A DNA stretch of 64,000 bases from an uncultured Verrucomicrobiae bacterium (lineage in GTDB: Bacteria; Verrucomicrobiota; Verrucomicrobiia; Chthoniobacterales; Terrimicrobiaceae), in assembly GCA_963706955.1 (NCBI GenBank), contig CAVPOC010000006.1, forward strand, positions 96,001-160,000. Reading direction: 5' to 3'. Both the position numbers and the translations under genes were made by a program. Below, in pieces: positions 7,499 to 42,597 of this stretch; position 1 is the stretch's first letter, and each line of letters begins with the position of its first letter. The notes under the pieces are model-generated. The model saw nothing but the letters and a program-made list of their open reading frames with translations. It searched no databases and was not told the origin of the DNA.

Positions 7499-7512
7499 TT
7501 GACCCAGGTCAA
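7499..7512 (+). promoter_or_regulatory. Crp/Fnr-family binding site upstream of hmp
   Basis: Palindrome TTGAC-CCAG-GTCAA. A -10-like TAGTCT at 7534-7539 gives class II spacing; RBS AAGGAGG precedes ATG 7575. Confidence 0.8.
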
Positions 7513-7574: not shown

Positions 7575-8801
7575 ATGTTATCGCAGCGGACTATCGACAT
7601 TGTCAAAGCAACGGCTCCGGTCCTCGAGGAGCATGGGGAGACCCTTACTCAGCACTTTTATAAGCGAATGTTCGCGCATAACCCGGAAGTCGCGCCGTTT
7701 TTTAATCCGGCTCACCAACGGGCAGGTTCGCAGCAGAAGGCTCTCGCCGCGGCCATTTGCGCCTACGCGGCGAATATCGAAAATCTAGAAGTGCTGGGCG
7801 GAGCGGTCGAGTTGATTGCCCAGAAACATTCCTCACTGCGCATCTTGCCGGAGCATTATCCGATTGTTGGCGAAAACCTGCTGGCCTCGATCCGCGAAGT
7901 TCTAGGTCCGGCAGCCACGGAACAGGTGATCACCGCATGGGCCGAGGCTTACGGGTTTCTCGCCGAAATTCTTATCGGCCGCGAAAAGCAGATATATTCC
8001 ACGCATGAGCGCGCCCGCAATGGATGGGTGGGATTCAAGCCGTTCCGGGTGGTTCGAACAGTGCCTGAAAGCGAGATCATCACCTCATTTTATTTGCAGC
8101 CTGCGGATGGCGGCGGGATGCCTGTCTTCAAACCTGGCCAGTACATCACCATCCGCATTCCGGACGATCGCGGGACGACAACGATGCGGAATTACAGTCT
8201 TTCCAATCCACCTGGTGAAGAATTCTTTCGCATCAGCGTGAAACGGGAACCAAGAGGTTTTGTGTCCACTTTTCTGCACCGAAGTGCCAACGAAGGTACC
8301 GAGATCGAAACCGGGCCTCCTTGTGGAGAATTTTTCCTCGATCTTACCGAAAAACACGAGCGCCCGCTGATGCTGCTTTCCGCAGGCGTCGGTATTACCC
8401 CGCTGCTTAGCATGTTGTTGGGCGTGCTCAAGACTCAGCCCGAGCGGGAAGTCTTTTTCGTTCATGGTGCATTGAACGGACGAGTGCACGCCTTCCGGGA
8501 TTTCGTTCGCGAACTCGCCGCCAGCCATCCGAACCTTAAGGTCCACTACCGCTACAACGAAGCGACTGCCGAAGACCGTCAGAAGCGATGGCATGATAGT
8601 GAAGGGCTCATCGACGCGGAATTGCTCGAAGATATGCTGCCCGATCGCGACGCTGACTATTATTTTTGCGGTCCGAAGCCCTTTATGGTCGGGATCTTCC
8701 ACAATCTTCTCAAATGGGGCATTCCGGCCTCCCAGGTTCACTTCGAATTCTTTGGGCCGCGACAAGAGCTCGAAACCGGCGAGTCCGAGCCAGAGGAGTA
8801 A
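7575..8801 (+). CDS. hmp: Flavohemoglobin (NO dioxygenase)
   Basis: Globin domain (FYKRMF, IAQKH, HYPIVG) followed by FAD/NAD domains (PGQY, RNYSLS, GVGITP, CGPKPFM, FEFFGP). Confidence 0.97.
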   Translation: MLSQRTIDIVKATAPVLEEHGETLTQHFYKRMFAHNPEVAPFFNPAHQRAGSQQKALAAAICAYAANIENLEVLGGAVELIAQKHSSLRILPEHYPIVGENLLASIREVLGPAATEQVITAWAEAYGFLAEILIGREKQIYSTHERARNGWVGFKPFRVVRTVPESEIITSFYLQPADGGGMPVFKPGQYITIRIPDDRGTTTMRNYSLSNPPGEEFFRISVKREPRGFVSTFLHRSANEGTEIETGPPCGEFFLDLTEKHERPLMLLSAGVGITPLLSMLLGVLKTQPEREVFFVHGALNGRVHAFRDFVRELAASHPNLKVHYRYNEATAEDRQKRWHDSEGLIDAELLEDMLPDRDADYYFCGPKPFMVGIFHNLLKWGIPASQVHFEFFGPRQELETGESEPEE

Positions 8802-8803: not shown

Positions 8804-9541
8804 CTATCTTGCGACTAACTCGACCGCCTCGCCTAAGAGTTGGTGCATCGTCAATTCAGCTCGCTGTGGATCGAGCACGAGGATGCCTTTGGAAGTTGTG
8901 CGAATAAGTTGCTTGTCTCGAAACCTGCGCAGCATGCGCGAGAGCGTCTCGCTGGTAATGTTTAACTCGGCTGCGACGATGCGCTTCGGACTTTCAAGTT
9001 CGATCTCGCAGGGATGACTTGAACGCGGAATTGGACAATGCCTCAAGAGCCAATTAAGGCAGCGCGCTTCGGCGTTCTTTAATGTAAGATCATCCAGAAG
9101 GCCGACGATATTCCGCAAATGCCGGCTCATGGAACCGATCATTCGCAACGCGAGTTCGGGTCGCTTGCGCAACAGCGCCACAAATTCTGCCTTTGGAATC
9201 AGAATGACAGCGCTCGGCGCAAGTGCGCGTGCGCTGGCCGGGTAACCATCATCCGAAGCCAGGGCAGCTTCGGCGAAGGAGTCACCGGGATGAAAGACAT
9301 GAAAAATCTGCGCCTTGCCCGCGGCGTTCACGCGATAGATGCTAATAGCTCCGCGTTGCACAACAAAGAAACCCTCACAGGGTTCTCCTTCGCGAAAAAG
9401 GGTTTCCCCTTTGTCAAGGCTGATGACCCTTGAGAACGAGCTGATCTCGGTGATCTCAGGCGATCGTAATCCTTCAAAGATTTGTGAGCGGAGCAGAGAA
9501 TTCTGAACCACAAGATGATCGAGACGAGAAGTCTTCGCCAT
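8804..9541 (-). CDS. Crp/Fnr family regulator (DNR/NnrR/HcpR-like)
   Basis: cNMP-like domain (LFREGE, GDSFAE) and an HTH with ETLSR recognition helix; lacks the N-terminal FNR Cys cluster. Confidence 0.9.
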   Translation of the reverse strand: MAKTSRLDHLVVQNSLLRSQIFEGLRSPEITEISSFSRVISLDKGETLFREGEPCEGFFVVQRGAISIYRVNAAGKAQIFHVFHPGDSFAEAALASDDGYPASARALAPSAVILIPKAEFVALLRKRPELALRMIGSMSRHLRNIVGLLDDLTLKNAEARCLNWLLRHCPIPRSSHPCEIELESPKRIVAAELNITSETLSRMLRRFRDKQLIRTTSKGILVLDPQRAELTMHQLLGEAVELVAR

Positions 9542-9582: not shown

Positions 9583-9596
9583 TTGATTTGGATCAA
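9583..9596 (+). promoter_or_regulatory. Consensus FNR box
   Basis: TTGAT-TTGG-ATCAA, a perfect TTGAT-N4-ATCAA, between the divergent regulator and the operon; -10-like TAAGTT at 9619-9624. Confidence 0.88.
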
Positions 9597-9632: not shown

Positions 9633-10679
9633 ATGTTTGCCACGTTGAACCTCCGCGCGCTGGCGGTGGCTACCCTGGCCACGTTACTCCTGATTGTGGG
9701 GGTATACGTCGGCTCTCGCAATCTGCAGAACTTCGATGCCGCCCTCGTGCCATACCTCGTTGGCACCCTGTTTGCGGCCTTTGGCATCGTGTATCGCTAT
9801 GTAGTGTGGCTTCAGCGGCCGCCGACGCGACGCTATTTCAGGCGCAGCCTTGAGTTGCTCTTTAGCGGAAAGTTCCTCTCCTACGGCTGGGAACTCCTCA
9901 AACACTTTATCGCGGACTTTCCCTTCCAGCGTTTCATTGCCCACCGAGGTCCACGTCGATTCTGGGGCCACTTTCTGATGTCTTGGGGTTGCATGATCGC
10001 GTTCGCGGTGACGATCCCGCTGACCTTTGGATGGATCCATTTTGGGCTGAAGCAAGGCGGCATCGATACTTATGAGGCGTTCGTCTTCGGCTACGAGGTC
10101 ATGGAGTTTCCGCTCAACAGCTTCATCGCTTACAACATCTTTCACATTTTGGATTGGTGTTCATGGATGGTAATTGCCGGGGTTCTCATCTTCATGCGGC
10201 GCCGCTTGACGGAGCTCGGCCAAATCACCTTGCAGACGTTCGAAGGCGACTGGCTTCCGTTAGTGCTCCTCCTGGCAATTTCGGTCACCGGACTCGGGTT
10301 GACCTGGGACTATGATTTGATGCACGGCAAGTATTACCCGTTTATGGCGGTAACCCATGCGATTACCGTGATCCTTTTTCTTATTTGGATCCCCTTCGGG
10401 AAGTTCTTTCACATTATCCAGCGGCCGGCGCAGCTTGGCATCGCCATCTATCGCAAGGCAGGTGCTGAGGGGCCGCAGGCTGTCTGTCCGCATACCGGGC
10501 AGGAGTTCGCGTCGCAGATGCAGATCAACGATCTCAAGGTGGTGACCAAAGAACTCGGCTTTAACTTCGATCTGGAAAACGGCGGCTCGCATCTTGACTT
10601 GAGCCCGCAGGGCAAGCGCGCAGCGCTGGCAAAGGCGCATCTGGCTGTGCGCAAGGAGGCCGGGCAGTTCTTTGGCTGA
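9633..10679 (+). CDS. NarI-like (nitrate reductase gamma family) heme-b membrane subunit
   Basis: About 6 TM helices. H-X17-H motif [19 protein letters not shown] resembles the NarI TM5 ligand pair; further His in WGHF and IFHI. Start 9633 preferred because 9555 lies upstream of the FNR box. Confidence 0.72.
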
Positions 10680-10699
10680 TCCCGGGAAGCGTTGGCAAT

Positions 10700-12994
10700 A
10701 TGGCAAAACTGCCCACTAGCGACGAAGCTCTGACCAGCCAGTTTGGGCCGCACCTTAACTATCCGCCGCGCGAAGGCTTCCCCGGACGGAACGAACCGGA
10801 CAAGATCGTCGAGACCCATTGCTGTTTCTGCGGGATGCAATGCGGCATCAAGCTTGTGGTCAAGGACAACAAGGTCGTCGGCTTCGAACCTTGGGAAGAG
10901 TTCCCCTTCAACGAGGGACGCCTCTGCCCGAAAGGCGTTCAGCGTTACCTGCAAAACAACCACCCGGACAGGCTGCTTTTCCCGTTGGAGCGGGTCGACG
11001 GTGCCGGCTTCAAGCGCACGAGTTGGGAGCACGCTTTCAAGAGAACGGTGTCTGAAATCCAGCGCATTCAGAGCAAATATGGACCCGATGCCTTTGGAAT
11101 GTTATCGGGTGTCTCCTTAACGAACGAGAAGAGCTACCTCGTCGGCAAGTTTGCCCGAGTGGCTCTCAAGACTCGCAATCTCGACTACAATGGCAGGCTC
11201 TGCATGGTCAGTGCTGGCGCAGGGAACAAGAAAGCCTTTGGTCTGGATCGGGGATCGAACAATTACTCCGACCTCAAACACGCAGAGGTAGTCATGATCT
11301 GCGGTACCAATGTCAGTGAGACGTTTCCAACATTGACGCACTGGCTTTGGCAGGCGCGTGATAATGGCGCGAAGCTTGTCGTCGTCGATCCACGGCTGAC
11401 CCCTATCGCGCGCACGGCCGATTTGCACCTGCCAATCCGGCCAGGCCGCGACTCCGCGCTCTACGGCGCGATGCTGCATCAACTGATCAAGCATGACTGG
11501 CTTGATCACGCGTTCATCGACAACTACACAAGCGGTTTTGAGGAAGCGGCCGCCGCGGTCAAGGATTATGACCTGAACTGGGCCGAAGAGGTCACCGGGA
11601 TCGCGAAGGATAAGATTATGCGTGCTGCCGAATGGTGGGGCCAGGCGAAGACCAGCTTCCTGATGCATGCTCGGGGGATTGAGCACCAAACCAAAGGTGT
11701 CGAGAACGTCAGTGCTTGCATTAATCTGGTCCTTGCGACTGGCCGCCTCGGCAAACCGTATTGTGGTTACGCCACCATTACCGGACAGGGTAATGGTCAA
11801 GGAGGCCGCGAGCACGGACATAAGTGCGACCAACTTCCAGGCAATCGCGACATCGAAAATCCCGACCACCGGCGTTACATCAGCGAAGTCTGGGGTATCG
11901 ACGAGAAGGAGCTGCCAGGGAAAGGGTTGACCGCTTACGAGCTTATGCAGGCAATCCACCAGGGCGAAATTAAGGGACTCATCTCGATTTGCTTCAATCC
12001 GGTTGTTTCGCTTCCCAATAATAACATGATTCGAGAGGCGCTCGAGAAACTAGAATTTTACTGTGCGATAGATTTCTTCCTCAACGAGACTGCGCACTAC
12101 GCTGACATCGTGCTGGCGGGCTCATTGCACGAAGAAGAGGAGGGCACGGTCACCACCGCCGAGGGTCGCGTGACGCGCATTCGGCAGGCCGTCACGCCGC
12201 CGGGAGAGGCGCGCACCGACACCGAGATCATTCTTGAACTGGCCCGACGTCTCGGAGCGGAGAAACATTTTTCCTTTGGCACCTCTGAGGACATCTTCAA
12301 CGAGCTGCGTGTCGCTTCAAAAGGCGGTACCGCCGATTATTTCGGGATCACTTACGAGAAGATTGAGAAGAACATGGGCGTCTTCTGGCCTTGCCCCAGC
12401 CTCGATCATCCAGGCACACCGCGCCTTTGGGAAGACCGCAAATTCAAAACACCCGATGGCAAAGCGCACTTCGTTCCCGTCGCCTACCGCGATCCCGGCG
12501 AGGTGGCCGACGCAGAATTTCCAGTAATCTTGACGACAGGCCGTGTCGTCTCGCAATACCTCAGCGGCACGCAGACGCGTCGCATCGGCAGGCTGGTCGA
12601 CCAGTATCCGGAACCGCTCCTGGAAATTCACCCAAAGCTTGCGGCCCAGTATGGTATTTCCGACCGAGAGTTGGTTCGCGTGGTCTCGCGACGCGCTAGT
12701 GCCGAATTTCCGGCTCAGTTAGTGGAAACGATTCGCGAAGATACGGTTTTTGTTCCGTACCATTGGGCTGGCAAGAAGTCGATCAACCAGCTCACCTCGG
12801 GCCATCTGGACCCAGTTTCGAAAATCCCAGAGTTCAAGGTGAGTGCGGTGCGGTTGGAGCCACTTGGCAAGGAAGCCCCACCACCGAAACAAAGCAGCCT
12901 CCAGCCAAGCGGCGGCTCACCAGCCCATCCGAGTCCAAAGCCCCCGCCGGTTCACGAATTTGCCCGCGCACCCAAAGAGCCCGCTCCTGATTGA
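10700..12994 (+). CDS. Mo-bisPGD oxidoreductase catalytic subunit, Nas/Nap nitrate-reductase-like
   Basis: [4Fe-4S] motif HCCFCGMQC...[13 protein letters not shown] (Cys-Met as in NapA/NasA), [26 protein letters not shown]; no Tat signal. Confidence 0.88.
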
Positions 12995-13026
12995 TCGTCC
13001 AACTTTAACCTCAAACGCAACTGACC

Positions 13027-13593
13027 ATGCTCCTTCAATTCAAGCAGGAAGAAGAGTTCTTCATGGACCCACAGCGTTGCATCGGCTGCCACGCGTGCGA
13101 AATGGCGTGTGCCGAATGCGAAACCAACGGGCAGACGCCGATGGTGAGTGTCGATTACGTCGAGCGTTACCTTTCCCCGCAAACCAGTGTCCAGATCTGC
13201 ATGCATTGCGAAGACCCGGCCTGCGCCAAAGTTTGCCCCGCCGATGCTATTCAGAAAGATGAGTTTGGCATCGTGCATAGCGCCAATACTGCGCGCTGCA
13301 TCTCCTGCTCCAACTGCGTCTATGCATGCCCATTTGGGGTGCCGAAAAAGGCCGAACCGATGCAGCTCATGATCAAGTGCAACATGTGCTACGACCGCAC
13401 CAGCGCCGGCAAGAAACCGATGTGCGCCACCGTCTGCCCGAGCGGGGCGCTTTGGTACGGAACGCGAGAAAAAATGCGTGAATTGCGTCCGAACAGCACC
13501 CCAGTGAATACTTTTCGCTTTGGTAGACAAACCGTAAAAACAAAAGTCAACGTCATGATGCCCAAGGGCAGCAGTGAGCTTGTGGTGGACTGA
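13027..13593 (+). CDS. Four-cluster iron-sulfur electron-transfer subunit (DmsB/NrfC-like)
   Basis: Four Cys groups: [39 protein letters not shown]...CATVC. Confidence 0.92.
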
Positions 13594-13597
13594 TACC

Positions 13598-14125
13598 ATG
13601 AATAAAGATATCGAAGCCCCCCTGCCGTCGCGGCCAGCATGGAACGCCGATTTCCCGATCGACCGTGTCGAAGCGCAGCATGTCTTACGGCGAGAATTCG
13701 CGAAGTATCTTGTCCTCGTGTCTGGCGGGCTCGCTGCCGGCAGCGCATGGGTTGCCGTCCGTGACAAGCTCTTCCCGCATCAGCCCATCACCGGTGAGCA
13801 TCTCATCTGCAAGACACAGGACGTGCCGGTCGGCGGCACACATGCCTTTACGCTTCCGGGGAGCGCAGTGCCGTACATCCTTATCAACCTTGGTAACGAT
13901 GAATGGCGTGCCTTCGAGCAAAAGTGCACCCACCTCTCCTGCGCGGTGTTCTACCAGCCGAAAGAAGGCAAGATCGAATGTCCTTGCCACAACGGCTGGT
14001 TCGACGCGCGGACCGGCGCTCCACTCCAAGGCCCCCCGCAGCGGCCCCTCCCTCAGCTCCAGCTGGAAGTTCGGGGCGACGACATTTTCATTGTGCCATC
14101 GAAGCACGAAGAGCACAGCGCTTAA
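13598..14125 (+). CDS. Rieske [2Fe-2S] protein with twin-arginine/TM N-terminus
   Basis: LRREF followed by a hydrophobic helix; CTHLSC and CPCH boxes; GPP.RPL. Confidence 0.92.
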   Translation: MNKDIEAPLPSRPAWNADFPIDRVEAQHVLRREFAKYLVLVSGGLAAGSAWVAVRDKLFPHQPITGEHLICKTQDVPVGGTHAFTLPGSAVPYILINLGNDEWRAFEQKCTHLSCAVFYQPKEGKIECPCHNGWFDARTGAPLQGPPQRPLPQLQLEVRGDDIFIVPSKHEEHSA

Positions 14126-14131
14126 AGTCGC

Positions 14132-15643
14132 ATGTCTGCTACTCGACAGGCTCTGAGTCAGGTTCACCCGGCAAAGACAAATGTCCTCTCTGCCGGGCTG
14201 ATTTGTGTCCTGATCTTAATTGTCAGCCTCCAGATCTGGCTGCTCAGTGCGAGTTTGAACACTTCGCTTGGAGGGGAGGCTGGTATCGCCTGGCCGGCGT
14301 TTTATGCCTCGGTAGTCTTGTTCTTGGCGAGCCTTGTGGCGCTTAGCTATCTGCCTCTGCCGATTCGATTGCCGGTGGTGATTGAACGCGAGGAGGCGTT
14401 TACCGATGCGGCACTTGCCTGGCGCACGCTTGGGATTAGTGCAGTCTCGCTTGGGCTCGCGTTTGCGGTGTGGTTCATGTGGTCGGCGATCACCGTGAAG
14501 ATCAACGATGCCGGCTTTGGTTTATCCAAGAACCAGCTTTTCTGGCTGACAGCCACTCCGGTCATCCTCGGTTCTCTGCTGCGCATTCCTTATGGTTTGA
14601 TTGTTTCGCGCTTCGGCAGCAGGCGCAGCTATGCCGTCGTAACACTCCTGCTTTTGCTGCCTGCGCTCGGAACCGCCTGGGCGGTCCGAGATCCGAAAAC
14701 TCCGTATGGGATGCTGCTCCTCTGGTCTGCACTGACTGGAATTGCCGGCGCCAACTTCGCCACTTCGATGGCCACGGTCACACTCTGGTTTCCCAAGAAG
14801 CTGCAAGGATCGGCACTTGGCATAAACGGCTTGGGCAACCTCGGAGTGACAGTCGCCCAGTTTACCGTCCCACTGGTTATCGGGTTTTCGCTGGCCGGTA
14901 TGGCTGGGGCTACACCTGACGCAGTCGCGCCTCTCAACCTCGAGAACGCCGCGCTGGTCTGGGTGCCCTTCATCCTGATCTGTACCGCCGCAATCTGGTT
15001 CTGGACGGAAGACTACCCGTCTAAGCCGCAGACGATAGCTTCCCAGCTGGTTGCGGGGAAACGGCTTCACACCTGGGTTCTTTCGCTGCTCTACTTTCTG
15101 ACTTTTGGCTGTTTTGTGGCCATGGGTGCCTCTCTTCCTCTCATTATCAAAGAAGTTTTTGCTTCGGCGCCTGGCGGCGCCCCAAGTCCGTTGCTCTACG
15201 CACCGTGGGCGGCAGCCATCGCCACCCTCATGCGACCGGTCGGAGGCTGGTTGGCGGATAAGTTTGGGGCTGGTCTGATCACAACGATCTCGATCGGCAC
15301 CATGGCAATCGGAGGGTTCAGCCTTTCGGCGTTTCTTCAACCGGACGGTTTCGCAGGATTCTTTGCCGTGGTCCTGGTCATTTGCGCGGCTTCGGGACTT
15401 GGCAACGGCAGCGTCTTCAAGATTATTCCGCTCGTGCTCGCGAAAGAGGCGGGCGCCGCGATTGGCATTGTCAGTTGCATCGGAGCCTTGGGTGGCTTTG
15501 TTCCGCCGCTCTTGCTCGGATGGACGATGGGTGCCTTTGGAAGTCCAGCGTGGGCTTACACTGCGATGGCCTTATTCGCTCTGCTCTGCCTGGCAGTTAA
15601 CGGCTATTTCTATCATCGCAGCAGTTCGCCAACCCACTGTTAG
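14132..15643 (+). CDS. narK: NarK-type nitrate/nitrite MFS transporter with an extra N-terminal two-TM module
   Basis: AFAVW, GSLLRIPYG, GIAGANFA, G.ALGIN.GLGNLG, YFLTFG, RPVGGWLADK, GNGSVFK; about 90 aa N-terminal extension containing LQIWLL. Confidence 0.88.
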   Translation: MSATRQALSQVHPAKTNVLSAGLICVLILIVSLQIWLLSASLNTSLGGEAGIAWPAFYASVVLFLASLVALSYLPLPIRLPVVIEREEAFTDAALAWRTLGISAVSLGLAFAVWFMWSAITVKINDAGFGLSKNQLFWLTATPVILGSLLRIPYGLIVSRFGSRRSYAVVTLLLLLPALGTAWAVRDPKTPYGMLLLWSALTGIAGANFATSMATVTLWFPKKLQGSALGINGLGNLGVTVAQFTVPLVIGFSLAGMAGATPDAVAPLNLENAALVWVPFILICTAAIWFWTEDYPSKPQTIASQLVAGKRLHTWVLSLLYFLTFGCFVAMGASLPLIIKEVFASAPGGAPSPLLYAPWAAAIATLMRPVGGWLADKFGAGLITTISIGTMAIGGFSLSAFLQPDGFAGFFAVVLVICAASGLGNGSVFKIIPLVLAKEAGAAIGIVSCIGALGGFVPPLLLGWTMGAFGSPAWAYTAMALFALLCLAVNGYFYHRSSSPTHC

Positions 15644-15689: not shown

Positions 15690-15995
15690 ATGGATTTGTC
15701 GACTAACTATCTCGGCATGAAGCTGCGCACGCCGCTCGTGGCTTCGGCTTCACCTTTATCTCGCAATGTTGACGACGTGAAACGTCTGGAGGAGGCCGGA
15801 GCTGCGGCCGTCGTCTTTCACTCCGTCTTCGCGGAACAACTGCAGTCCAGCGCCAAAGCTGCAGACTTCAGAGTGGACCCCGAACTTTATCTCAACCACA
15901 TCGCACAAGCAAAGGAGAGCGTAAGCATCCCGGTCATTGGTAGCGTGAATGCCGCAGCCCCCGGCAGCTGGGTCGGCTATGTTCGACGGGCGCGC
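15690..15995 (+). pseudogene. Truncated dihydroorotate-dehydrogenase-like protein (N-terminal ~100 aa)
   Basis: MDLSTNYLGMKLRTPLVASASPL..AGAAAVV.HS..IPVIGSVN. Similarity stops where a palindromic repeat begins; the family is normally ~300+ aa. Confidence 0.75.
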
Positions 15996-16009
15996 CTCCA
16001 GGGCCAGTG

Positions 16010-16385
16010 TTGGGCAACGCCCAAGGTGCCGAGCACGCAGAACAGCAGGAGCGCTGAAGGCGCGATTCATCCAACGTCGTCTTTCGACAATGGACCACCG
16101 TGTCCTGATCGCGGGAGGGATCCCAGGACTGGTTTGCGAACGATCGTTGCTTCTATGGGCAGCGCGTTTTTGTAGGGCGAGCGAGTTCGATGCGCTTCTT
16201 GTTTGCTTGGAACACAGCCCAAGACAGCGGCGACCGGCCGCAAACTTGACTACGAGTTTGAGGAAGCTCATGTCGGGGGAGCTACGTCTGTGAATCGCGC
16301 TTTCAACGCTGATTATTTGAGTGCGTGTTGCCTTGGCGTTGCCCAAGGTTAGCTAATAAGACCGCGCCCTTGGCGCTGAAACATA
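16010..16385. repeat. Composite inverted-repeat element (REPIN/MITE-like), copy 1
   Basis: Left arm TTGGGCAACGCCCAAGG (16010) and AGCGCTGAAGGCGCGATTCA (16050). Right arm TGAATCGCGCTTTCAACGCT (16291), CCTTGGCGTTGCCCAA (16331) and CGCGCCCTTGGCGCTG. Confidence 0.75.
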
Positions 16386-21931: not shown

Positions 21932-23604
21932 ATGTCTTCACGGGATTTCGTTCAGCTCGGCCTCTATCTGTTCGCGCTGGTTGTTGCGACGCCGATACTT
22001 GGCGCGTTCATGGCACAGGCGCTTCAGGGTGGGCCGACACTGCTTTCGCGGCTCTTGCGTCCAATGGAAAGAGCGATCTATCGGGGGGCCGGAGTGGATG
22101 AAACACGCGCGATGCGGTGGACGGAGTATTGTCTGGCGCTGTTAGCCTTCAACGCGGTCGGCTTCGCGTTCCTCTTTATCCTTCAGCTTATCCAAGGGTG
22201 GCTGCCGCTAAATCCGGCAAGGCTCGGCAATGTGCCGGTGTCCACTCGCGTTCAACACGGCCGTCAGCTTCATGACTAACACGAACTGGCAAGCGTATTC
22301 GGGGGAGGCGACGATGAGCTACCTTATGCAGATGCTCGGCCTCACGGTGCAGAATTTCGTGAGTGCGGCGACGGGCATCGCTGCCATGCTCGCTCTCACA
22401 CGCGCGCTCGTCGGTCGCTCCGCGAATGCGCTCGGCAATTTCTGGGCTGATCTGACACGCAGCACACTCTATGTGCTCCTGCCTCTCTCGCTCGTTTTCG
22501 CCGTCGTGCTGGTGAGCCAAGGAGTCGTGCAGACCTTCGCCAGTTACGCGCAGGCGACAACGCTGGAAGGAGCGACGCAACAAATCCCGCTCGGCCCGGC
22601 AGCCTCGCAGATTGCGATCAAGCAGCTCGGGACTAACGGCGGCGGTTTCTTCGGCGTGAATAGCGCGCACCCGTTTGAAAATCCCACGCCCCTCTCGAAC
22701 TTCCTCGAAGTGCTCGCGATCTTGCTGATTCCGGCGGCGCTGACTTACACCTATGGGACGATGGTCGGGGACCGTCGCCAGGGTTGGGTGCTCTTCGGAA
22801 CGATGATGGCGCTTTTTCTCGCGGGGTTTGCCGTCACGTGGTGGGGCGAAATCTCCGCAGGCACGCTCGAGGGAAAAGAGATGCGCTTCGGCGTCTTCAA
22901 CAGCGCGCTTTGGGCAACTGCAACGACGGACGCTTCCAATGGTTCGATTAACGCGATGCACGACAGCTTTTCGCCGCTCGGCGGCATGGTGCCGATGCTC
23001 AACATCATGCTCGGCGAGGTGATCTTCGGTGGCGTCGGCGCCGGCATGTACGGCATGCTGATGTTCGTCATCCTCACCGTCTTCATCGCGGGACTAATGG
23101 TCGGACGCACGCCGGAATACCTCGGCAAGAAGATCGAGGCGCCAGAGATTCGCTGGGCGGTAATCGCGGTGCTGTTGCCTTGCGCTTTAATTCTCGCTCG
23201 GATCGGCGGTCGCATGCGTGCTGCCCAATGCCCTGGCATCGCTCAACAACAACGGGCCACATGGATTGAGCGAGATTCTCTATGCCTTCGCATCGGCTGC
23301 GGGAAACAACGGCAGTGCCTTCGCCGGGCTTAACGCCAACACGAACTTCTATAACTACGTGCTCGGAGTCGTGATGCTGCTGGGACGCTTTGGTGTCATC
23401 ATCCCGGCGCTCGCGATCGCGGGAAGTCTGGCGCCGAAGAAGATTGCGCCGGTGACTGCGGGAACATTCCCAACCGATGGCGCCACCTTCGCTTGCTTGC
23501 TGATGGCAGTGATTCTGATCATCGGGGCGCTGACGTTCTTTCCGGCACTCAGCCTCGGCCCGATCGCTGAGCATCTGCTAATGCAGCAAGGACGGATGTT
23601 TTGA
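21932..23604 (+). pseudogene. kdpA: K+-transporting ATPase subunit A (2 apparent frameshifts, possibly sequencing error)
   Basis: [58 protein letters not shown] spread over three frames; extra bases near 22241 and 23196. Confidence 0.92.
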
Positions 23605-23613
23605 CCCAACTTC

Positions 23614-25694
23614 ATGAATCCAAAAGTCTCATCATTGCTCGAGCCGACGCTCTTGCGAACAGCCATGGTCGAGAGCGTCAAGAAACTCGATCCGCGCGTT
23701 CAATGGCGAAATCCGGTGATGTTCGTAGTGCTGATCGGCGCAGTCCTCACGACTCTGACATCTGTTTCACGAATTCACGCTTTTCACATCGCAAATTACG
23801 CTCTGGCTTTGGTTCACGTTGCTCTTTGCAAACTTTGCTGAGGCAATGGCCGAAGGCCGCGGCAAGGCGCACGCGGATACGTTGCGCAAGATGCGCACGA
23901 AAACCGTTGCCCGGCGGCTGCGCAATGGCGACGAGGAAAAGGTCGTGGCGAGCGAGTTGCGACGCGGAGACTTGGTGGTTTGTGAAGCAGGCGATATTAT
24001 TCCTGCTGATGGTGACGTGATCGAAGGCATCGCCAGCGTCGATGAAGCAGCGATGACTGGCGAGTCTGCTCCGGTGATCCGCGAGAGCGGCGGGGATCGC
24101 AGTGCGGTCACTGGCGGAACGCGCGTTTTGAGCGACCGAATTGTCGTCCGCGTGACTTCCGAGCGAGGCCAGTCGTTTCTCGATCGCATGATTCTAATGA
24201 TCGAGGGGGCGGTGCGGCAGAAGACACCTAACGAGATCGCGCTCGGTATCTTGCTCGTAAGCCTGACGGTTCTATTCATCCTCACGGTCGCTACGTTGCC
24301 GCTGTTCGCGCGCTACAGCGAGAAGGCCGCCTCGCAGCCTGGCGTCGTGAACACATCGATTCCCGTGCTCGTGTCGCTATTGGTTTGTTTGATTCCTACG
24401 ACTATCGGCGCGCTCTTAAGCGCGATTGGTATCAGTGGCATCGACCGCATGATGCGGCGAAACGTGCTCGCCACAAGTGGACGCGCAGTCGAGGCGGCTG
24501 GTGACATCGACGTGCTGTTGCTGGATAAAACCGGCACAATCACACTCGGAAATCGCCAGGCGAGTGCGTTCCTCCCTGCGCCGGGCGTGAATGAAAAAGC
24601 TCTTGCCGTGGCGGCGCATCTAGCCTCACTCGCCGATGAAACACCCGAGGGTCGTTCCATCGTCGTGCTGGCAAAGGAAAAGTTCGGCCTTCGCGCGAAA
24701 GAAATCGGCGAAATGCACGCGCACCTGGTGCCCTTTACGGCGCAGACACGCATGAGCGGCGTGGACATTCCCGGTCATGACGGCCAGCCCATGAACTTGC
24801 TGCGCAAGGGCGCATTCACCGAGGTTCGAGCCTGCGGTCAGAATCCAAGGGCGGCAGCTTCCCGCAAGAGGTCGAGGTTACTGTGAACGCGATTTCGCAC
24901 GCCGGGGGCACACCGCTGGTGGTTGCCGACGCTCGGCAGGTGCTTGGGGTCATTCACCTGAAGGATATAGTCAAGGGAGGGATTCGAGGAGCGCTTCATG
25001 CAACTGAGTAAAATGGGGATCCGCACGGTGATGATCACCGGCGATAATCCGCAAGACTGCAGCGGCAATTGCGGCTGAGGCTGGCGTGGACGATTTCATG
25101 GCACAGGCGACGCCCGAGGACAAACTCACGCGCATCCGCAAAGAACAAGCGGAAGGCCGACTCGTCGCGATGGCTGGCGATGGCACCAACGATGCGCCTG
25201 CGCTCGCGCAAGCCGACGTCGGTCTGGCGATGAACACCGGAACGCAAGCCGCGCGCGAGGCCGGCAATATGGTCGACCTGGAGAGCAATCCGACGAAGCT
25301 CATCGAAATCGTCGAGATTGGGAAGCAGTTGCTGATGACGCGCGGCTCGCTGACTACCTTCTCCATCGCCAATGATGTCGCGAAATACTTCGCAATCCTT
25401 CCGGCGATGTTCGCTGCGCTCTATGCGACACAAGGTCAGCGCGGGCCGCTTGCGGCGCTTGACATCATGCGGCTCCACTCCCCTGAGAGCGCGATCCTGA
25501 GCGCCGTTATCTTCAATGCGCTCATCATTGTCGCACTCATTCCACTCGCGCTCAGAGGCGTGCGTTATCGCGCCCTCGGTGCCGCGGCCATTCTCCAACG
25601 CAACGTCTTAATTTACGGCCTGGGTGGACTCATCGCACCATTTGTCGGCATCAAGCTGATCGATCTAATACTGACCGCTCTTCGGCTCGCATAA
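23614..25694 (+). pseudogene. kdpB: K+-transporting ATPase subunit B (~5 apparent frameshifts, possibly sequencing error)
   Basis: [41 protein letters not shown]; extra bases near 23770, 24835, 24840, 24986 and 25052. Confidence 0.92.
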
Positions 25695-25697: not shown

Positions 25698-26259
25698 ATG
25701 AAAATTGCTTTCCAATCTTTGCGAATCTTCGCGGTGCTCACGGTTCTAACGGGCGTCTCTATCCGCTCGCCGTCACGGGTATCAGTTGGATCTGTTTTCG
25801 CGATAAGGCGAACGGCAGCCTGGTCACACGGGATGGCAAGACAATCGGTTCATCGCTGCTGGCGCAAAAGTTCGAGAGCGACCGAGTACTTCTGGCCGCG
25901 ACCTTCCGCGGTTGACTTCGCGACCGTTGCCTCCGGAGCCAGCAATCTCGGACTTACGAGCGCAAAGCTGAACGAACAAGTCGCGGAGCGTGCGGCTAAG
26001 CTGCGCGAGGCACATCATCTTTCTGCCGATGCACGCCTCGCTCTCGACATGATCTACACTTCGGGGAGCGGACTCGACCCACACATTTCGCCCGAAGCCG
26101 CGCGCTCGCAGGTGGCCCGCGTAGCGAAAGCAAGAAATCTTGATGAAAACCGAGTGACCGAGTTGCTAGATCGTTCGACCGAAGGTCCGCAGCTCACCGT
26201 CCTGGGTGAACCCCGCGTGAACGTGCTGAAGCTGAACCTCGATGCTGGATGCCATGTGA
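25698..26259 (+). pseudogene. kdpC: K+-transporting ATPase subunit C (~3 apparent frameshifts, possibly sequencing error)
   Basis: YFWPRPSA, SGASNL, SGSGLDPHISP, GEPRVNVLKLN; indels near 25757, 25880 and 26241. Confidence 0.88.
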
Positions 26260-26271
26260 TAAGTTCCTGTC

Positions 26272-28953
26272 GTGCCGAACGAGCCGAAGAGACCTGATCC
26301 CGATAAGCTTCTCGCCGCCATCAAGTCGGGTGAGGCGCGCGCGAAGCGAGGGACTCTACGCATCTTTTTCGGCATGGCACCGGGAGTGGGCAAAACCTAC
26401 GCCATGCTGCGGGCGGCAAAGCAGCGGCTTGCCGAAGGTGTAGATGTGGTCGCCGGCGTCATTGAAACCCATGGTCGCGCCGAGACTGAAGCGCTTTTGT
26501 TCGATTTCCCTCAGATTCCGCGACAGAAGGTGGAGTATCGTGGCATTGAGTTGAGTGAATTCGATCTCGATGCAGTGCTCGAGCGCAAGCCGCGGCTGAC
26601 GCTCGTGGATGAGCTGGCTCATACGAATGCGCCCGGTAGCCGGCATCCGAAACGCTACCAGGACGTGCTCGAACTTCTCGATGCCGGAATCGACGTTTAC
26701 ACGACGCTCAACGTGCAGCACGTCGATAGTCGCGCCGATATCGTGGCACAAATCAGCGGCACGATTGTGCGCGAGACGGTGCCGGATTCCGTTCTCGATG
26801 CTGCTGAGGTCGAGCTGGTGGACCTCACGCCAGACCACCTGTTGAAGCGCCTGGCCGAGGGGAAGGTCTACCTCGGTGATCGCGCCGTTGCCGCTGCGGA
26901 AAACTTTTTCAAGCCAGGGAACCTAACCGCGTTACGGGAAATGGCCTTGCGGTTTACCGCCGAACGGGTGAATCACGAGCTCCGCGATTTCATGCGCTCG
27001 CGCCAGATTGTCGGGCCGTGGAAAGCTGGCGAGCGCCTCTTGGTTGCGGTGAGTTCCAGTCCTTACTCCGAGCCGCTCATTCGCTGGACGCGCCGAGCGG
27101 CGGCGGGCCTCGATTCGCCGTGGATTGCCGTGCACGTTGAATCCACCAAGTCGCTTTCCGATGAGGAAAAAACCCGTCTCACCCGAAACCTGTCACTGGC
27201 ACGTGAACTCGGCGGGGAAGTGATCGCCACAACCGGTGAAGATATTGTCGAAGCGCTCTTGCGCATCGCGCGACAGAACAACGTCACGCAAATCGTGCTC
27301 GGGAAATCATTTCGGCCCCCTTTTTTCGATTTCATCCGCGGCGGCTCGCTAGTCGATCGGGTCATCCGCAAAAGCGGCAACATCGACGTTTACGTCGTTC
27401 GTGCAGAAACCGAGGAGAGAACGGCGACGCGTTTCCGGCAGACACCGACCTTTGCCCCCGCCCGCGAATACTTGATTGCAGTCGGTGGCGTCGCTTTGCT
27501 CACCCTAGCATGTTCATTTCTTACACCGATTACCGGCTACTGGGCCATCTCGCTTATCTACCTGACGGCTGTGTTGCTGGCGGGCCTCATTCTCAGCCGC
27601 GGACCCGTATTGGTCGTGGCAGGCCTAAGTGCATTGCTCTGGGACTTCCTCTTCATCCCGCCGCTCTTCACGTTCTACATCGGCAAGGCGCAAGATGCGC
27701 TGATGTTCGTCATGTATTTCGTCGTCGCGCTTGTGGTAGGGCATCTCACAGGGAGGCTGAAAGCGCGCGAGCAAACCGAACGCCGCCGCGAGCAGCGAGC
27801 AACCGCACTCTATCAAGTCGTCCGCGCGCTAGCCGCGGCGCCGTCGCTGGATAACGCCTTCGTCGCCGCGGCACGCCAGATCAACGATCTGCTGACCGCG
27901 AAATCGACGGTGCTCTTCGACCCGGCGCTCTTTGATCCGGACAGTGGAAGCTCAGAGCTAATCCCGTATCCGCTGAGTCTCGCGGCGATGTCGGAAAAGG
28001 AGAAAGGTGTGGCCACCTGGTGCTACTTGAACGGCCAGCCAGCAGGCCGTTTGACCGACACGTTGCGCGAAGCGGACGCCCTCTATCTTCCGATCAAACG
28101 GCTTAAAGACACCGTCGGCGTCCTCCGCGTGGAGCTACCTGAAGACGCTGGGCTTTCCTTCGCGGAACGTCAGCTTCTCGAGGCCTTTGCTGATCAGCTC
28201 GCCGAAGTGATCGAACGCGAGCGACTGATCCAAGTCGCACATCGCGCGCAGCTAACCGCGGAAGCCGAGCGGCTCCGTAAAACTCTGCTCGACTGCGTAT
28301 CGCACGAGCTGAAGACCCCGATTGCCGCGGTCACCGCAGCCAGCGAGAGCCTCCTGCGCGAAGTGCCGCTCGCCATGCAGCAGGAACTCGCGCGCGAAGT
28401 CCAGCAAGGTGCCAAACGGCTCAATCGGGTGGTTAATCACCTTCTCGACATGACGCGCATTGAGAGCGGCGTGCTCAAGCCAAAACTGGAGTGGTGCGAA
28501 GTGCGCGAGCTGCTGCAATCCGCACAGGAGACAGAGCGCGATGCGCTCGCCGGACGCGAGGTGGCGATCAGCGTCCCGGTGACTACGCCGCTAATATTAG
28601 TCGATGTTTCATTGATCGAGCAAGCTGTCGGGAAGCTTCTCGTAAATGCCGCCAGCTATAGCCCGGCCGGGACACCCATTGAGGTCACCGCAAACTTCGA
28701 CGGCAGCGACCTTCGCATTTCCGTGAGCGACCAAGGCGCGGGTCTGCAGCCTGGAGACGAACAACGGGTCTTTGAGAAGTTCTATCGTGGTGATGGTGCG
28801 CGGGCGGGTGGACTTGGCTTGGGCCTCTCGATCGCGCGTGGCTTTGTTGAGGCACATGGCGGCAAGATCATCTCGGAAAATCGACCGGAAGGCGGCGCCT
28901 GCTTCACGATCTCTGTGCCCGTGGCAACCTCCCGTTTAGATCGAACTGCATGA
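26272..28953 (+). CDS. kdpD: Sensor histidine kinase KdpD
   Basis: GMAPGVGKTYAML, VDELAHTN, USP domain, 4 TM, SHELKTP H-box, GLGLGLSI; intact 893 aa. Confidence 0.96.
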   Translation: MPNEPKRPDPDKLLAAIKSGEARAKRGTLRIFFGMAPGVGKTYAMLRAAKQRLAEGVDVVAGVIETHGRAETEALLFDFPQIPRQKVEYRGIELSEFDLDAVLERKPRLTLVDELAHTNAPGSRHPKRYQDVLELLDAGIDVYTTLNVQHVDSRADIVAQISGTIVRETVPDSVLDAAEVELVDLTPDHLLKRLAEGKVYLGDRAVAAAENFFKPGNLTALREMALRFTAERVNHELRDFMRSRQIVGPWKAGERLLVAVSSSPYSEPLIRWTRRAAAGLDSPWIAVHVESTKSLSDEEKTRLTRNLSLARELGGEVIATTGEDIVEALLRIARQNNVTQIVLGKSFRPPFFDFIRGGSLVDRVIRKSGNIDVYVVRAETEERTATRFRQTPTFAPAREYLIAVGGVALLTLACSFLTPITGYWAISLIYLTAVLLAGLILSRGPVLVVAGLSALLWDFLFIPPLFTFYIGKAQDALMFVMYFVVALVVGHLTGRLKAREQTERRREQRATALYQVVRALAAAPSLDNAFVAAARQINDLLTAKSTVLFDPALFDPDSGSSELIPYPLSLAAMSEKEKGVATWCYLNGQPAGRLTDTLREADALYLPIKRLKDTVGVLRVELPEDAGLSFAERQLLEAFADQLAEVIERERLIQVAHRAQLTAEAERLRKTLLDCVSHELKTPIAAVTAASESLLREVPLAMQQELAREVQQGAKRLNRVVNHLLDMTRIESGVLKPKLEWCEVRELLQSAQETERDALAGREVAISVPVTTPLILVDVSLIEQAVGKLLVNAASYSPAGTPIEVTANFDGSDLRISVSDQGAGLQPGDEQRVFEKFYRGDGARAGGLGLGLSIARGFVEAHGGKIISENRPEGGACFTISVPVATSRLDRTA

Positions 28954-29639
28954 AAACTGGCCCTGTCGCCCTGATCATCGATGACGAAAAACAGATTCGC
29001 CGCCTCGTCAGATTTGCCTTGGAAAGCGAGCGCTACCAAGTCTTCGACGCGGAGAGCGCAGAGCAAGGACTGACCGAAGCCGTCTATCGCCGGCCGGATG
29101 TTGTCGTCCTCGATCTTGGACTACCTGACATGGACGGCGTCGAGGTGCTGCGCCGTCTCCGGGAATGGAGCCAAGCCCCGGTGCTGATTCTGTCCGTTCG
29201 CGATGACCCTGACGAGAAGGTCGCCGCACTCGATGCTGGCGCCGACGACTACGTTACAAAGCCGTTTAACACCGCCGAGTTGCTCGCGCGGCTGCGTGTT
29301 ATCCAGCGTCGCTCACTTGCCGAGTCCGGCGAACCAATCTTCGAATGCGGAGGCCTTCGCGTCGACCTGGCCGCGCGCCGGGTCACGTTTGACGGCGCCG
29401 AGGTCAAACTGACTGCGACCGAGTATGGGCTCCTCCGAACCCTGGTGCAGCACGCTGGAAAAGTGGTCACGCACAAGCAGCTCCTGCGATCGGTATGGGG
29501 CGAGAAAGCCGAAAACCAGGCACAGTACCTCCGCGTTCATATCACGCACGTGCGGCAGAAAATCGAACCTGACAGCGCTCATCCACGCCTCATCAAGACT
29601 GAGACCGGCATCGGTTATCGACTCAGTCTTGAGATGTGA
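28950..29639 (+). CDS. kdpE: Response regulator KdpE
   Basis: LDLGLPDMDG, GADDYVTKPF, YLRVHI, TETGIGYRL; overlaps the kdpD stop codon. Confidence 0.95.
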   Translation: MKTGPVALIIDDEKQIRRLVRFALESERYQVFDAESAEQGLTEAVYRRPDVVVLDLGLPDMDGVEVLRRLREWSQAPVLILSVRDDPDEKVAALDAGADDYVTKPFNTAELLARLRVIQRRSLAESGEPIFECGGLRVDLAARRVTFDGAEVKLTATEYGLLRTLVQHAGKVVTHKQLLRSVWGEKAENQAQYLRVHITHVRQKIEPDSAHPRLIKTETGIGYRLSLEM

Positions 29640-29692
29640 GGCGAACGCTGCGCGGCTTCTGCCATTCATGTTTGGTATTAATTTTACCTCCA

Positions 29693-29766
29693 ATGAAGTC
29701 CACCCACGGACTCCCTGTGGTCGCATTGGAGCTCTTGGGATCATGTATGGCGACATTGGCGCCTAA
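29693..29766 (+). pseudogene. kup: Remnant of a KUP/HAK potassium transporter N-terminus
   Basis: IGALGIMYGDIG then A-stop, resembling the KUP signature LGALGVVYGDIGTSPLY; an upstream ATG lies in another frame. Confidence 0.6.
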
Positions 29767-30054
29767 GTTCGAGCCATCACGCGCGAAGGCCCGCAGAATT
29801 TTTCAAGCCACCTAATAACTGCACCATTGGAGGCAGGGCAGGTCGAAATCAATTAGAAAATAGAATCCTGCTTGAAGATTATCTAAGAGGGCTCCTAGAG
29901 CTAGTTTGTCCACGGCTGATGTGGATGCGCTGAGGCCAAAGCTTGTGCGAGTGGAGCGAAGATGTGGTCGGGTTCGCCAAGATTACTAGCGGGACAAGCC
30001 GGTCAGAATTAGCTATGGAAAACAGACCATGGGCAGTTCAATCCAAAGCCAGAG

Positions 30055-31728: not shown

Positions 31729-31754
31729 CTCGGGGCAAAAAGAATCCAACCTGG

Positions 31755-31982
31755 GCCTGGGGCAAACACCCCAGGAAATGGCGTCCACATGTGAGTAGCG
31801 CTGAAAGCGTGATTCAGGCATGAGGAACATCACCGGGCCGCGTTTCCGGAAGAGAAGTATCGCCGCAAGGCAGCCTCGAGAAAGCGAAGATACATTTGAA
31901 TCGCACTTTCAGCGCTAGGTGCGAGAGATGTGGATTTCTCTGGCGGTGCTCGAGGCTAATATGATTCGCGCCCTTGGCGCTG
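31755..31982. repeat. Composite inverted-repeat element (REPIN/MITE-like), copy 2
   Basis: GCCTGGGGCAAACACCCCAGG, AGCGCTGAAAGCGTGATTCA (31797), TGAATCGCACTTTCAGCGCT (31897), GCTAATATGATTCGCGCCCTTGGCGCTG; same motifs as 16010-16385. Confidence 0.75.
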
Positions 31983-32472
31983 GAGGGCTGCGGGGCCGGA
32001 GAGAGTCTTCGTGTCGGTCAAGCGGTGGGTCAGAGTGCTTTCGATGTTAACTTGATTTGGCGCGCCCACGCGCGGTGGCGCGGTCGTCCCGGGAGACGAG
32101 CATTTCCACATATGAGTGGCGCTGAAAGTCAATGCAAAGGGCAAACTTTCTCTGCTTCCATCGGGAGGCGCGCCACGCGTAGGCGCTGGCACCGTCGCCG
32201 CTAAATCCTGAATGCGTCTTAGCAGGGCTGCAACGGGGTTTTTCGCAAAAGCGGCGAGCAATGGTTGCAGATCCTTTCCGGGCGGGCGATGAGTCTTGCC
32301 CATGATCGGCGCATCCATTAGTTAGGCCGAGCTGCTGATGACTGCCCGTTTTCTTTTTCCAAATCCGCGCCACGCGAATGTCTCAGTGTCCGCTCGCGCC
32401 CGAACCAGGGCAAGCGGCCAACATTCGCGAGAGACGGGCTGTGCCGGAGCGTAAACCGTATCGCACGATCCT

Positions 32473-33408: not shown

Positions 33409-33472
33409 TCGAAGTGGCGCAAGAGATGGGCAGGCTTGACCGCTGGGGGTCAGACCGCGAGGATGCGCCACC

Positions 33473-34240: not shown

Positions 34241-34274
34241 GACAGATCACGCCGTGACACCATAGCGGGCTTGC

Positions 34275-35636: not shown

Positions 35637-35818
35637 CTACTTCACGCTATAATGCGGAGAAAATAAACTCAGGGAATGGAAAATTCATCTTTTCCGCACT
35701 TTCGCGCGGGAGAGGGTCACGAGGCGGACGGGTTCCCGGCGGTTAGGACCGTCCGCGTGGCCCGTTTTAGCGGCCTTGATTGGGGTGCCCACCGCGGCTA
35801 TCTTGGCGGTCTTTTCTC

Positions 35819-37399: not shown

Positions 37400-37498
37400 G
37401 TTGTCGCGGAAGTGGACTCGAGAGAGCCGTGCGGCCATTGCTGCTGCTGCGCCTTGGTGCCTTCCGATCGCTGACGCGAAGCAGCACATTGAGAAAAT

Positions 37499-37564
37499 TT
37501 GTAGAGGCGCTTGTGCCAAGCGCCAGTAGATTTCGCTGGGCGCTTGACACAAGTGCCCCTACAA
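37499..37564. repeat. REP-like inverted doublet (GTAG type)
   Basis: TTGTAGAGGCGCTTGTGCCAAGCGCC...GGCGCTTGACACAAGTGCCCCTACAA. Confidence 0.75.
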
Positions 37565-37639
37565 CGATTTCGGGTTACCAGTTTGTTGTCCTGCTATACC
37601 TCGTGGGACGATCGACAGGAGAACAGGAGGAAGCAAATT

Positions 37640-42590: not shown

Positions 42591-42597
42591 GATGGAC

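Follow-up and report, generated by a model that had tools for sequence, protein, structure and literature searches.

What does a putative nitrate reductase of the NasC lineage do beside a membrane anchor and an exported Rieske protein? The question is posed by five genes, at positions 9633-15643 of a 64-kb window (the whole stretch of DNA analysed) on contig CAVPOC010000006.1 of an uncultured Verrucomicrobiae bacterium. The genes are real and conserved, and they apparently encode an uncharacterised complex: a probable membrane-bound nitrate reductase whose electron-input module may be new. What is directly observed is the content of the locus, its conservation, the motifs, the topology, the lineage, and the co-occurrence of genes.

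The nitrate reductase operon is intact. Open reading frame (ORF) calls in the window place five ORFs on the forward strand with gaps of 20, 32, 4, and 6 bp, reproducing the tight, co-oriented packing (gaps of 4-32 bp) described in a first-pass annotation of this DNA. The products are: a membrane anchor (9633..10679), assigned by structure model, fold comparison, and alignment to the NarI fold with one additional N-terminal helix; a molybdenum bis(pyranopterin guanine dinucleotide) catalytic subunit of the NasC lineage, with a proline-rich C-terminal tail (10700..12994; family NF047855, motifs, and tree); a DmsB-like four-cluster iron-sulfur (Fe-S) subunit (13027..13593; PF13247, TIGR02951 at 96 bits, and alignment); a Rieske [2Fe-2S] protein with a twin-arginine signal-anchor (13598..14125; PF00355 and motif alignment); and the product of the last ORF (14132-15643). 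The DmsB-like and Rieske proteins had been recognised at first pass, and the last gene had been read as NarK. It does carry a NarK-type nitrate/nitrite transporter domain of the major facilitator superfamily (MFS) (14372..15643; TIGR00886, 263 bits, below the cut-off of 312). The ORF is however a fusion, its N-terminal part (14132..14371) encoding the two-helix small subunit DUF6755 (residues 15-74; PF20540, E 1.2e-10). For the first gene, an alternative upstream ATG at 9555 is possible; homologues begin at the 9633 methionine.

Is this arrangement more than chance? Genome contigs hold at least 576 relatives of the catalytic subunit, and the best 80 loci of that scan are the genome loci counted here; a metagenome scan, with the Brevibacillus subunit as query, gave 576 matches, the best 80 of which are the metagenome loci. 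The genome loci hold the anchor in 78/80, the Fe-S protein in 77/80, the Rieske protein in 77/80, and DUF6755 in 76/80, in the same gene order. Order kept in 76-78 of the 80 loci for each gene is more than chance, and this search for conserved synteny, which the first-pass annotation had proposed, bears out its surmise that similar gene sets exist in other phyla. The constant fifth member is DUF6755 rather than NarK (76 versus 60 of the 80), and in most relatives DUF6755 is a stand-alone gene. The conserved unit, here called the module, consists of anchor, Mo subunit, Fe-S protein, Rieske protein, and DUF6755; the transporter usually adjoins it or is fused. Genome loci in which partners are missing comprise two short contigs and two Armatimonadota loci. 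Among the metagenome loci, the anchor is present in 72/80; seven have the Fe-S gene with no anchor on the contig, and one has the catalytic gene alone. All four large genes are held by 138 of the 160 loci in the two sets.

The gene set is widespread, in at least six phyla. Its hosts include Verrucomicrobiota, Bacteroidota, Acidobacteriota, and Myxococcota, along with Deinococcus and Brevibacillus plasmid records. The module occurs in 41 of 201 Flavobacterium genomes and the anchor in 2 of 300 other genomes from the window's own phylum; the closest catalytic subunits in the tree include those of Myxococcota and Acidobacteriota. This patchy spread probably occurred through horizontal transfer.

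Variant loci also occur. The two Armatimonadota loci (L029:597-2789 and L034:3023-5227) have a module-type catalytic subunit, nesting among module subunits, without adjoining partners. Two Bacteroidota loci (L012:11865-18181 and L052:13483-18044) have the module directly beside narG, and L012 also has a quinol-type nitric oxide (NO) reductase. NarK and anchor profiles match one reading frame, a transporter-anchor fusion, at L196:210-2405 and L204:3651-5942; anchor homologues of 750-830 residues (P0123, P0167, P0183, P0211) parallel the DUF6755-NarK fusion.

The catalytic subunit (764 residues) is of the Bacillus and actinobacterial NasC lineage, not of the NapA or NasA/NarB lineages. The two motifs that first drew attention to it are located: C41-x2-C44-x3-C48...C76, for one [4Fe-4S] cluster; and the Mo ligand region NGRLCM, with Cys168 followed by Met169. 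The best family match is NasC (NF047855, 854 bits, below the cut-off of 1100, which is exceeded in 0/50 module genomes and once in a B. subtilis control set); NarG (TIGR01580) reaches 67 bits against a cut-off of 1084, and NapA (TIGR01706) 259 against 931. The motifs NGR[LF]CM and TGQGNGQG[GA]RE are present in 152/152 module loci. Soluble enzymes linked to nirB in Skermanella, Mycobacterium, and Paenibacillus, plasmid examples with 43-48% identity to the module subunit, carry the same active-site motifs.

Trees were built quickly from 65 rows and carefully from 30 of them, with only five rows of soluble NasC. Module subunits and nirB-linked NasC-type enzymes fall into a single clade (100/100), with NapA, fused NasA, and FdhF outside it. 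Module monophyly relative to soluble NasC has an approximately unbiased test value (p-AU) of 0.32, the soluble enzymes lying inside or beside the module lineage; those "assimilatory" enzymes could be stripped-down descendants of the complex. The earlier description as Nas/Nap-type thus holds for the Cys-Met motif and fails for NapA and NasA/NarB. The earlier claim of a non-canonical respiratory enzyme is partly contradicted by the same tree, which puts soluble, nirB-linked enzymes nearest to the module subunits, although the set of genes is conserved.

Formate dehydrogenases are the top sequence matches in the PDB, but the His and Arg of those enzymes are absent and the tree branch is separate: the module has TGQG where formate dehydrogenases have RGQ, and Cys-Met instead of Cys/Sec-His. 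Lineage, motifs, and NarK together point to nitrate as substrate. Aligned against E. coli NapA, the catalytic subunit has no twin-arginine leader, so it is presumably cytoplasmic.

The membrane anchor has no Pfam match and weak matches to TmcC, QmoC, and HmcE. NCBI names its family "MFS transporter," a label rejected here in view of the NarI-like fold. The model (predicted local distance difference test, pLDDT, 83) has six membrane helices. Its best fold match is NarI, with Z 11.3 (a value that helical bundles can attain through common arrangement) and a root-mean-square deviation (rmsd) of 4.4 over 179 aligned residues; next is EtfD, with Z 10.9 over 229 residues. Foldseek alone gave the anchor no match at E <= 0.001. 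Profile alignment with hhalign (94%) pairs anchor H242, K257, and H260 with NarI H187, R202, and H205.

How many haems does the anchor hold? Across 54 anchors sharing 29-71% identity, six residues never vary: H113, H242, H260, K257, Y147, and C285. None of the 54 has a His at positions 119-130, the site of NarI H66. Two others are partly kept (H136 in 34/54, H171 in 30/54), one or the other in 46/54. Positive-inside counts place H113 and H260 on the cytoplasmic side, with the 133-163 hairpin and the 226-236 loop outside. Since the H113/H260 pair is kept and the H66 equivalent missing, the inner haem would be fully ligated and the outer NarI site would have no canonical pair. The anchor's sequence conservation thus suggests that it probably lacks the two bis-His haems of NarI; the early label of NarI-like anchor survives for the fold, and NarI's four-His, two-haem set is not matched, there being three invariant His. 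Two NarI-type bis-His haems were considered and rejected: H136 is invariant in 22 close anchors, but present in 24/44 and 34/54 diverse ones. We prefer a single haem, as in EtfD, at about even chances with the alternative of a second haem bearing an unusual ligand (H136, H171, or Y147).

The anchor ends in a small cytoplasmic domain (window positions ~10470-10620) whose four-Cys motif is reduced to C285 in the window protein. The pattern CxxC...CxxC is found in 59/68 distant anchors and 0/75 anchors of the Bacteroidota/Verrucomicrobiota clade, an apparent loss of a metal site in that clade. In fold comparison, 52 residues of the domain match a portion of the ferredoxin HycF (Z 6.0, rmsd 1.7).

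What do the remaining subunits contribute? The Fe-S protein (188 residues) has four 4-Cys motifs, invariant in 9/9 aligned sequences. The Rieske protein has the disulfide-type motifs CTHLSC and CPCH, and both boxes are present in 142/142 Rieske proteins; in its twin-arginine anchor, RRxF is found in 114/142 and R31 is invariant in 54/54. It is without the Ser and Tyr of high-potential bc1 Rieskes. Those two residues raise the potential of the bc1 proteins, and a low-potential Rieske fits menaquinol.

Modelled together with two haems, the anchor, DUF6755, and the Rieske protein score 0.82, against 0.26 for the best control; the mark for this score was reached by 116/157 solved and 2/215 mismatched pairs, a calibration unlike the complex job, which used its own alignments and carried the haems along unscored. 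At least 90% of contacts recur between runs, and partner pLDDT is at least 77. The most confident contacts join the Rieske helix, DUF6755, and the anchor, with DUF6755 packing on the Rieske helix. On the Rieske side the interface takes in the loops that bear the cluster (111-120, 129-133), and on the anchor side residues facing outward (136-147, 223-239); from these lists the Rieske head is placed over the outer site. Complex modelling, an idea of the first-pass annotation carried out for these three subunits, thereby supports Rieske binding to the anchor and DUF6755, and suggests that the Rieske protein stands where NarI has its outer haem. DUF6755 is a probable structural subunit of the complex.

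NarK residues R151 and R368 align with R89 and R305 of E. coli NarK (37% identity), presumably the two substrate-binding arginines. Elsewhere the genome holds tatC, a molybdenum cofactor (MoCo) biosynthesis gene, and futalosine-pathway menaquinone genes.

These features probably describe a five-subunit membrane-bound menaquinol:nitrate oxidoreductase, serving as an electron sink under low-oxygen or nitrosative conditions. Motifs, NarI fold, and conserved partners make a membrane-bound, quinone-linked, non-canonical nitrate reductase, as first proposed, the best reading of the locus, with activity predicted. For the scheme that follows we infer substrate, quinol donor, haem number, direction, regulation, and energy conservation. 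NarK would bring nitrate in and take nitrite out, and the NasC-type Mo subunit would turn nitrate into nitrite in the cytoplasm. Menaquinol would be oxidised within the NarI-fold anchor, with electrons passing to the cytoplasm-side haem b (H113/H260), then to the four-cluster subunit, the [4Fe-4S] cluster, and Mo. The Tat-exported Rieske protein (Tat, twin-arginine translocation), secured by its own helix together with the DUF6755 hairpin, would set its head against the anchor's outer side, close to H242 and Y147, at the site of NarI's second haem, and join in quinol oxidation. Quinol protons released outside and proton consumption inside would make a redox loop like that of NarGHI. The flavohaemoglobin Hmp would clear NO arising from nitrite, and a Dnr-like regulator would govern hmp and the operon through two boxes.

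Both of the latter genes lie just upstream. The hmp gene (7575..8801, forward strand; NF009805, 554 bits, above the cut-off of 432), for the NO-detoxifying flavohaemoglobin, is probably co-regulated; 63 bp before it, a motif search found the FNR/DNR-type palindrome TTGAC-N4-GTCAA (7499..7512). Divergent from the operon is a gene for a Crp/Fnr-family regulator (8804..9541, reverse strand; PF00027 and PF13545), with no N-terminal FNR cysteine cluster and the recognition helix ETLSR; from its motifs we take it to be Dnr/HcpR-like. Ahead of the operon is the FNR/DNR box TTGATTTGGATCAA (9583..9596), the only perfect match to TTGAT-N4-ATCAA in the window. The box is centred 41.5 bp before 9631, a position preceded by a TG-n-TAAGTT element, a layout consistent with class II promoter geometry; a promoter scan found no sigma-70 consensus. 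Similar boxes precede the anchor in loci L001, L002, L003, L020, and L022, and a homologue of the regulator lies near the module in 5/80 genome loci. A tblastn search found no second Crp/Fnr-type regulator. The combination of hmp, two boxes, and a cluster-less regulator makes it likelier that the adjacent Dnr-type protein reads the box in NO-responsive control. The FNR box claimed at first pass is thus perfect, and FNR is the less likely reader.

Directly 3' of the operon, an ORF at 15690-16175 partially matches NF005741 (dihydroorotate dehydrogenase-like, 112 versus 303 bits) and is probably a remnant. Farther on, kdpA and kdpB (22230-24886) are found only as partial ORFs, like other split genes of the assembly, probably through indel errors.

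Does the complex respire nitrate or assimilate it? For the window genome, the operon is most likely dissimilatory: a separate assimilatory locus, nrtCD-cysJ-nirA-nasA-mobA, lies on contig C1 (~112800-122700; L084:4865-14643), and hmp, the Dnr-type regulator, and the perfect FNR-type box stand alongside the operon. No gene for a diaphorase, NirB(D), or NirA is in the window operon, and no such gene cluster reaches three or more of the 80 genome loci. A survey of 50 module genomes, covering 50/77 loci, found NirB in 23, and a second NasA in 23/23 of those (22 long fused, 1 fragment). Flavobacterium succinicans LMG 10402, a cultured non-pathogenic carrier, shows one NasC-family match and no NirB. 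Among the 201 Flavobacterium genomes, nirB is accompanied by fused NasA in 60/61, and narG and napA are found in 0/201. The denitrification gene nirK is in 28/41 Flavobacterium module genomes versus 37/160 others, and among NasA carriers in 26/37 versus 9/23 (p 0.03), kin not being independent in either comparison. Recurrent neighbours of the module are MoCo genes, YtfE/RIC, Rrf2, NnrS, hemerythrins, Crp/Dnr, and nirK. Genes of NO and anoxia responses among them are YtfE/RIC at 11/80 and Rrf2 at 12/80 genome loci; YtfE at 12/80, NnrS at 8/80, and Crp/Dnr at 6/80 metagenome loci.

The assimilatory locus on contig C1 has peculiarities of its own. The gene listed as cysJ is CysJ-like, the NasA-type subunit has RQCM, and a DmsB-like Fe-S segment and a hydrophobic ORF precede nasA; the locus may represent another assimilatory design with a membrane link. 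Frameshifts interrupt several ORFs of the locus.

The same complex might instead be a quinol-fed assimilatory nitrate reductase, passing nitrite to NirA or NirB for biosynthesis. The NasC lineage of the catalytic subunit fits this account, as does the reading by Heylen and Keltjens, in their passages on the Bacillus bataviensis genes, of nasC with Fe-S and Rieske genes as an alternative assimilatory system (PMC3475470). Assimilatory-type nitrite reductase genes, nirBD among them, adjoin 5/80 metagenome loci (L182, L192, L205, L208, L212), all in a single 8-row subclade that is, judging from gene neighbourhood, a candidate quinol-fed assimilatory enzyme; and nirB is present in 37/41 Flavobacterium module genomes. 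Yet a dedicated NasA is already present in the window genome and in all 23 NirB-bearing module genomes, and 7/30 module genomes lacking NirB (several incomplete) are also without a NirA/CysI-type match. The window copy falls outside that subclade, flanked by hmp, the Dnr-like gene, and FNR-type boxes. Assimilation is thus quite unlikely as the general account: probably true for one subclade, less likely for the window copy. The first-pass verdict of "probably dissimilatory" accordingly holds for the window copy, given its separate NasA locus and hmp/Dnr context, and not for the whole family.

Alternatively, the complex could be a redox valve without energy conservation, disposing of surplus quinol electrons in fermentation or under NO stress, with protons released on the cytoplasmic side because, as in EtfD, only the inner haem would be present. 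Only the inner-haem His pair is complete; EtfD, in the passages of PMC13083937 that describe it, has one b haem with menaquinone 4-5 Å away; and the window genome has no downstream denitrification genes. An invariant outer-side His242 and an exported Rieske protein docking outside do not easily fit an anchor with no outer quinol site, however, and nitrate improves anaerobic growth of F. columnare according to PMC5395568; such a valve is improbable. Finally, the substrate could be another oxyanion (chlorate, selenate, or similar), or the enzyme could oxidise nitrite. The score below the NasC cut-off (854 versus 1100) leaves room for this, and a TDT/SLAC1 anion channel is a neighbour in 9/80 genome loci and 8/80 metagenome loci. 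It is very improbable: the active-site motifs are common to nirB-linked NasC enzymes, NarK is fused or adjoining, and established redox potentials make electron transfer from nitrite to a b haem or menaquinone strongly unfavourable.

Several points weigh against respiratory menaquinol:nitrate oxidoreduction, besides the modest fold score and the unlike calibration mentioned above. The window genome (92.5% complete) has no nrfA, nirK, or qNor, so nitrate use here would end at nitrite; its sole nirK match, below cut-off, looks like a two-domain multicopper oxidase and was rejected. In Flavobacterium, nirB co-occurs with the module more strongly than nirK does (37/41 versus 28/41), and module and nirB often share one nitrate island. 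Of the five metagenome loci adjoining nitrite reductase genes, one also has NirA, CysJ, and cyanase, and one has the ATPase of an ATP-binding cassette nitrate transporter. The box precedes the operon in only 5/19 verrucomicrobial loci, and under relaxed criteria the number of FNR boxes in the window does not exceed chance (3 versus 1.73). The evidence from F. columnare, which follows, also has its limits: its genes were matched by name and order, not by sequence, and their co-induction was under starvation, not anoxia.

F. columnare ATCC 49512 grows better anaerobically when given nitrate, and the relevant passages of that report recognise just a "soluble cytoplasmic" nitrate reductase (PMC5395568). 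Its supplement lists FCOL_02080-02105 as antiporter, major facilitator transporter, nitrate reductase, 4Fe-4S ferredoxin, Rieske, and hypothetical, and gives NirB/NirD as unique to F. johnsoniae. In a second F. columnare strain, six consecutive such genes are up together (log2 1.9-2.6) in the starvation-adapted form, as are nirK (log2 4.4) and norB (3.4) (PMC13186806 supplements). The nearest sequence hint for the match is an anchor homologue, P0389, carrying the name Flavobacterium oreochromis. A deletion study of F. columnare denitrification genes, reportedly by Abdelhamed et al. in 2021 (J Appl Microbiol 130:1062), may bear on function.

How does the module compare with known systems? It most resembles NarGHI with NarK (E. 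coli, PDB 1Q16) in its cytoplasm-facing Mo subunit, four-cluster Fe-S subunit, and NarI-fold cytochrome b, with NarK next door and an FNR-type box; quinol-to-nitrate working is probably the same. The module differs in having a 764-residue Cys-ligated NasC-type subunit, not a NarG of ~1250 residues with an Asp ligand; a 188-residue DmsB-like protein in place of NarH; an anchor that, with three invariant His, does not match all four NarI ligands (H56, H66, H187, H205); and the additional Tat-Rieske and DUF6755. Soluble NasC of Bacillus subtilis and actinobacteria, which works with NasB or NirB, shares the catalytic lineage and active-site motifs, whereas the module has membrane and Fe-S subunits in place of the diaphorase. 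NapAB(C/GH) likewise has a Cys-Met Mo ligand region and one [4Fe-4S] cluster and can be respiratory; the module subunit, unlike NapA, has no Tat signal and is on a separate branch. Family scans of the operon ORFs found no NarJ gene, no cytochrome c gene, and no cytochrome b/b6 family match. The canonical Nap, Nas, and Nar partners are indeed missing, as the first-pass annotation had noted: cytochrome c, diaphorase/NirB(D)/NirA, and NarJ.

Arsenite oxidase AioB and haloarchaeal pNar are cases of a Rieske protein linked to a molybdoenzyme. With Rieske/cytochrome b complexes, AioAB, and pNar, the module shares a Tat-anchored disulfide-type Rieske; unlike them, its Rieske protein is predicted to face the outside and its Mo subunit the cytoplasm, and it has neither a cytochrome b6/bc subunit nor a cytochrome c. 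EtfD of Mycobacterium smegmatis (PDB 9OJN) also has a NarI-like membrane domain followed by a cytoplasmic Fe-S-type domain. It is one chain that reduces menaquinone from the electron transfer flavoprotein, has no Rieske or Mo subunit, and is described with a single bis-His b haem plus menaquinone in the EtfD passages of PMC13083937. Two published gene sets appear, by the gene content and order described, to be of the same family: Bacillus bataviensis nasC-BABA_16877-BABA_16872 (PMC3475470) and F. columnare FCOL_02080-02105 (PMC5395568 supplement). In the corresponding passages they appear as "alternative assimilatory" or "soluble cytoplasmic nitrate reductase," with the anchor unrecognised.

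The complex is undescribed in the open-access literature searched, a scope that leaves most subscription journals outside; within it, DUF6755 occurs in 0 papers, and the relevant passages of PMC10100899, PMC6606698, PMC8235139, and PMC13222897 do not describe the module. The first-pass remark that no biochemical characterisation was known agrees with this. Wells et al. 2020, where they discuss these clades, state that NasA and NasC are exclusively assimilatory and that no NasC-clade member has a four-cluster subunit or membrane anchor (PMC7331816). To that generalisation, as worded there, the operon is a counter-example.

A bolder proposal, which we hold tentatively and consider doubtful, is that the module represents a fourth class of prokaryotic nitrate reductase. 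A single-haem NarI-fold protein, with an exported Rieske replacing the outer haem, would form a Qo-like site and bifurcate menaquinol: one electron inward to nitrate; one via the Rieske to periplasmic carriers (NirK, NO reductase, oxidase). Contig C10 (~26000-43300) has, judging from ORF sequences, alternative complex III-like, ccoN-like, and coxA-like oxidase genes, whose products are possible periplasmic Rieske acceptors. Were the bifurcating reading true, it would supply the missing first denitrification step in Bacteroidota and other lineages without narG and napA.

Current annotation labels the catalytic gene "assimilatory nitrate reductase catalytic subunit" and its neighbour "MFS transporter." Gene surveys accordingly count the enzyme as assimilatory, and score respiratory nitrate reduction by narG and napA alone. 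Should the complex prove respiratory, the first denitrification step would be present in many bacteria of soil and fresh water that are now believed to lack it. DUF6755 gains a probable role as structural subunit, and the possibility that a Rieske cluster replaces NarI's outer haem becomes a directly testable bioenergetic question in cultured, genetically accessible strains. For its hosts, the module probably allows nitrate use when oxygen is scarce, in bacteria that have neither of the textbook respiratory nitrate reductases.

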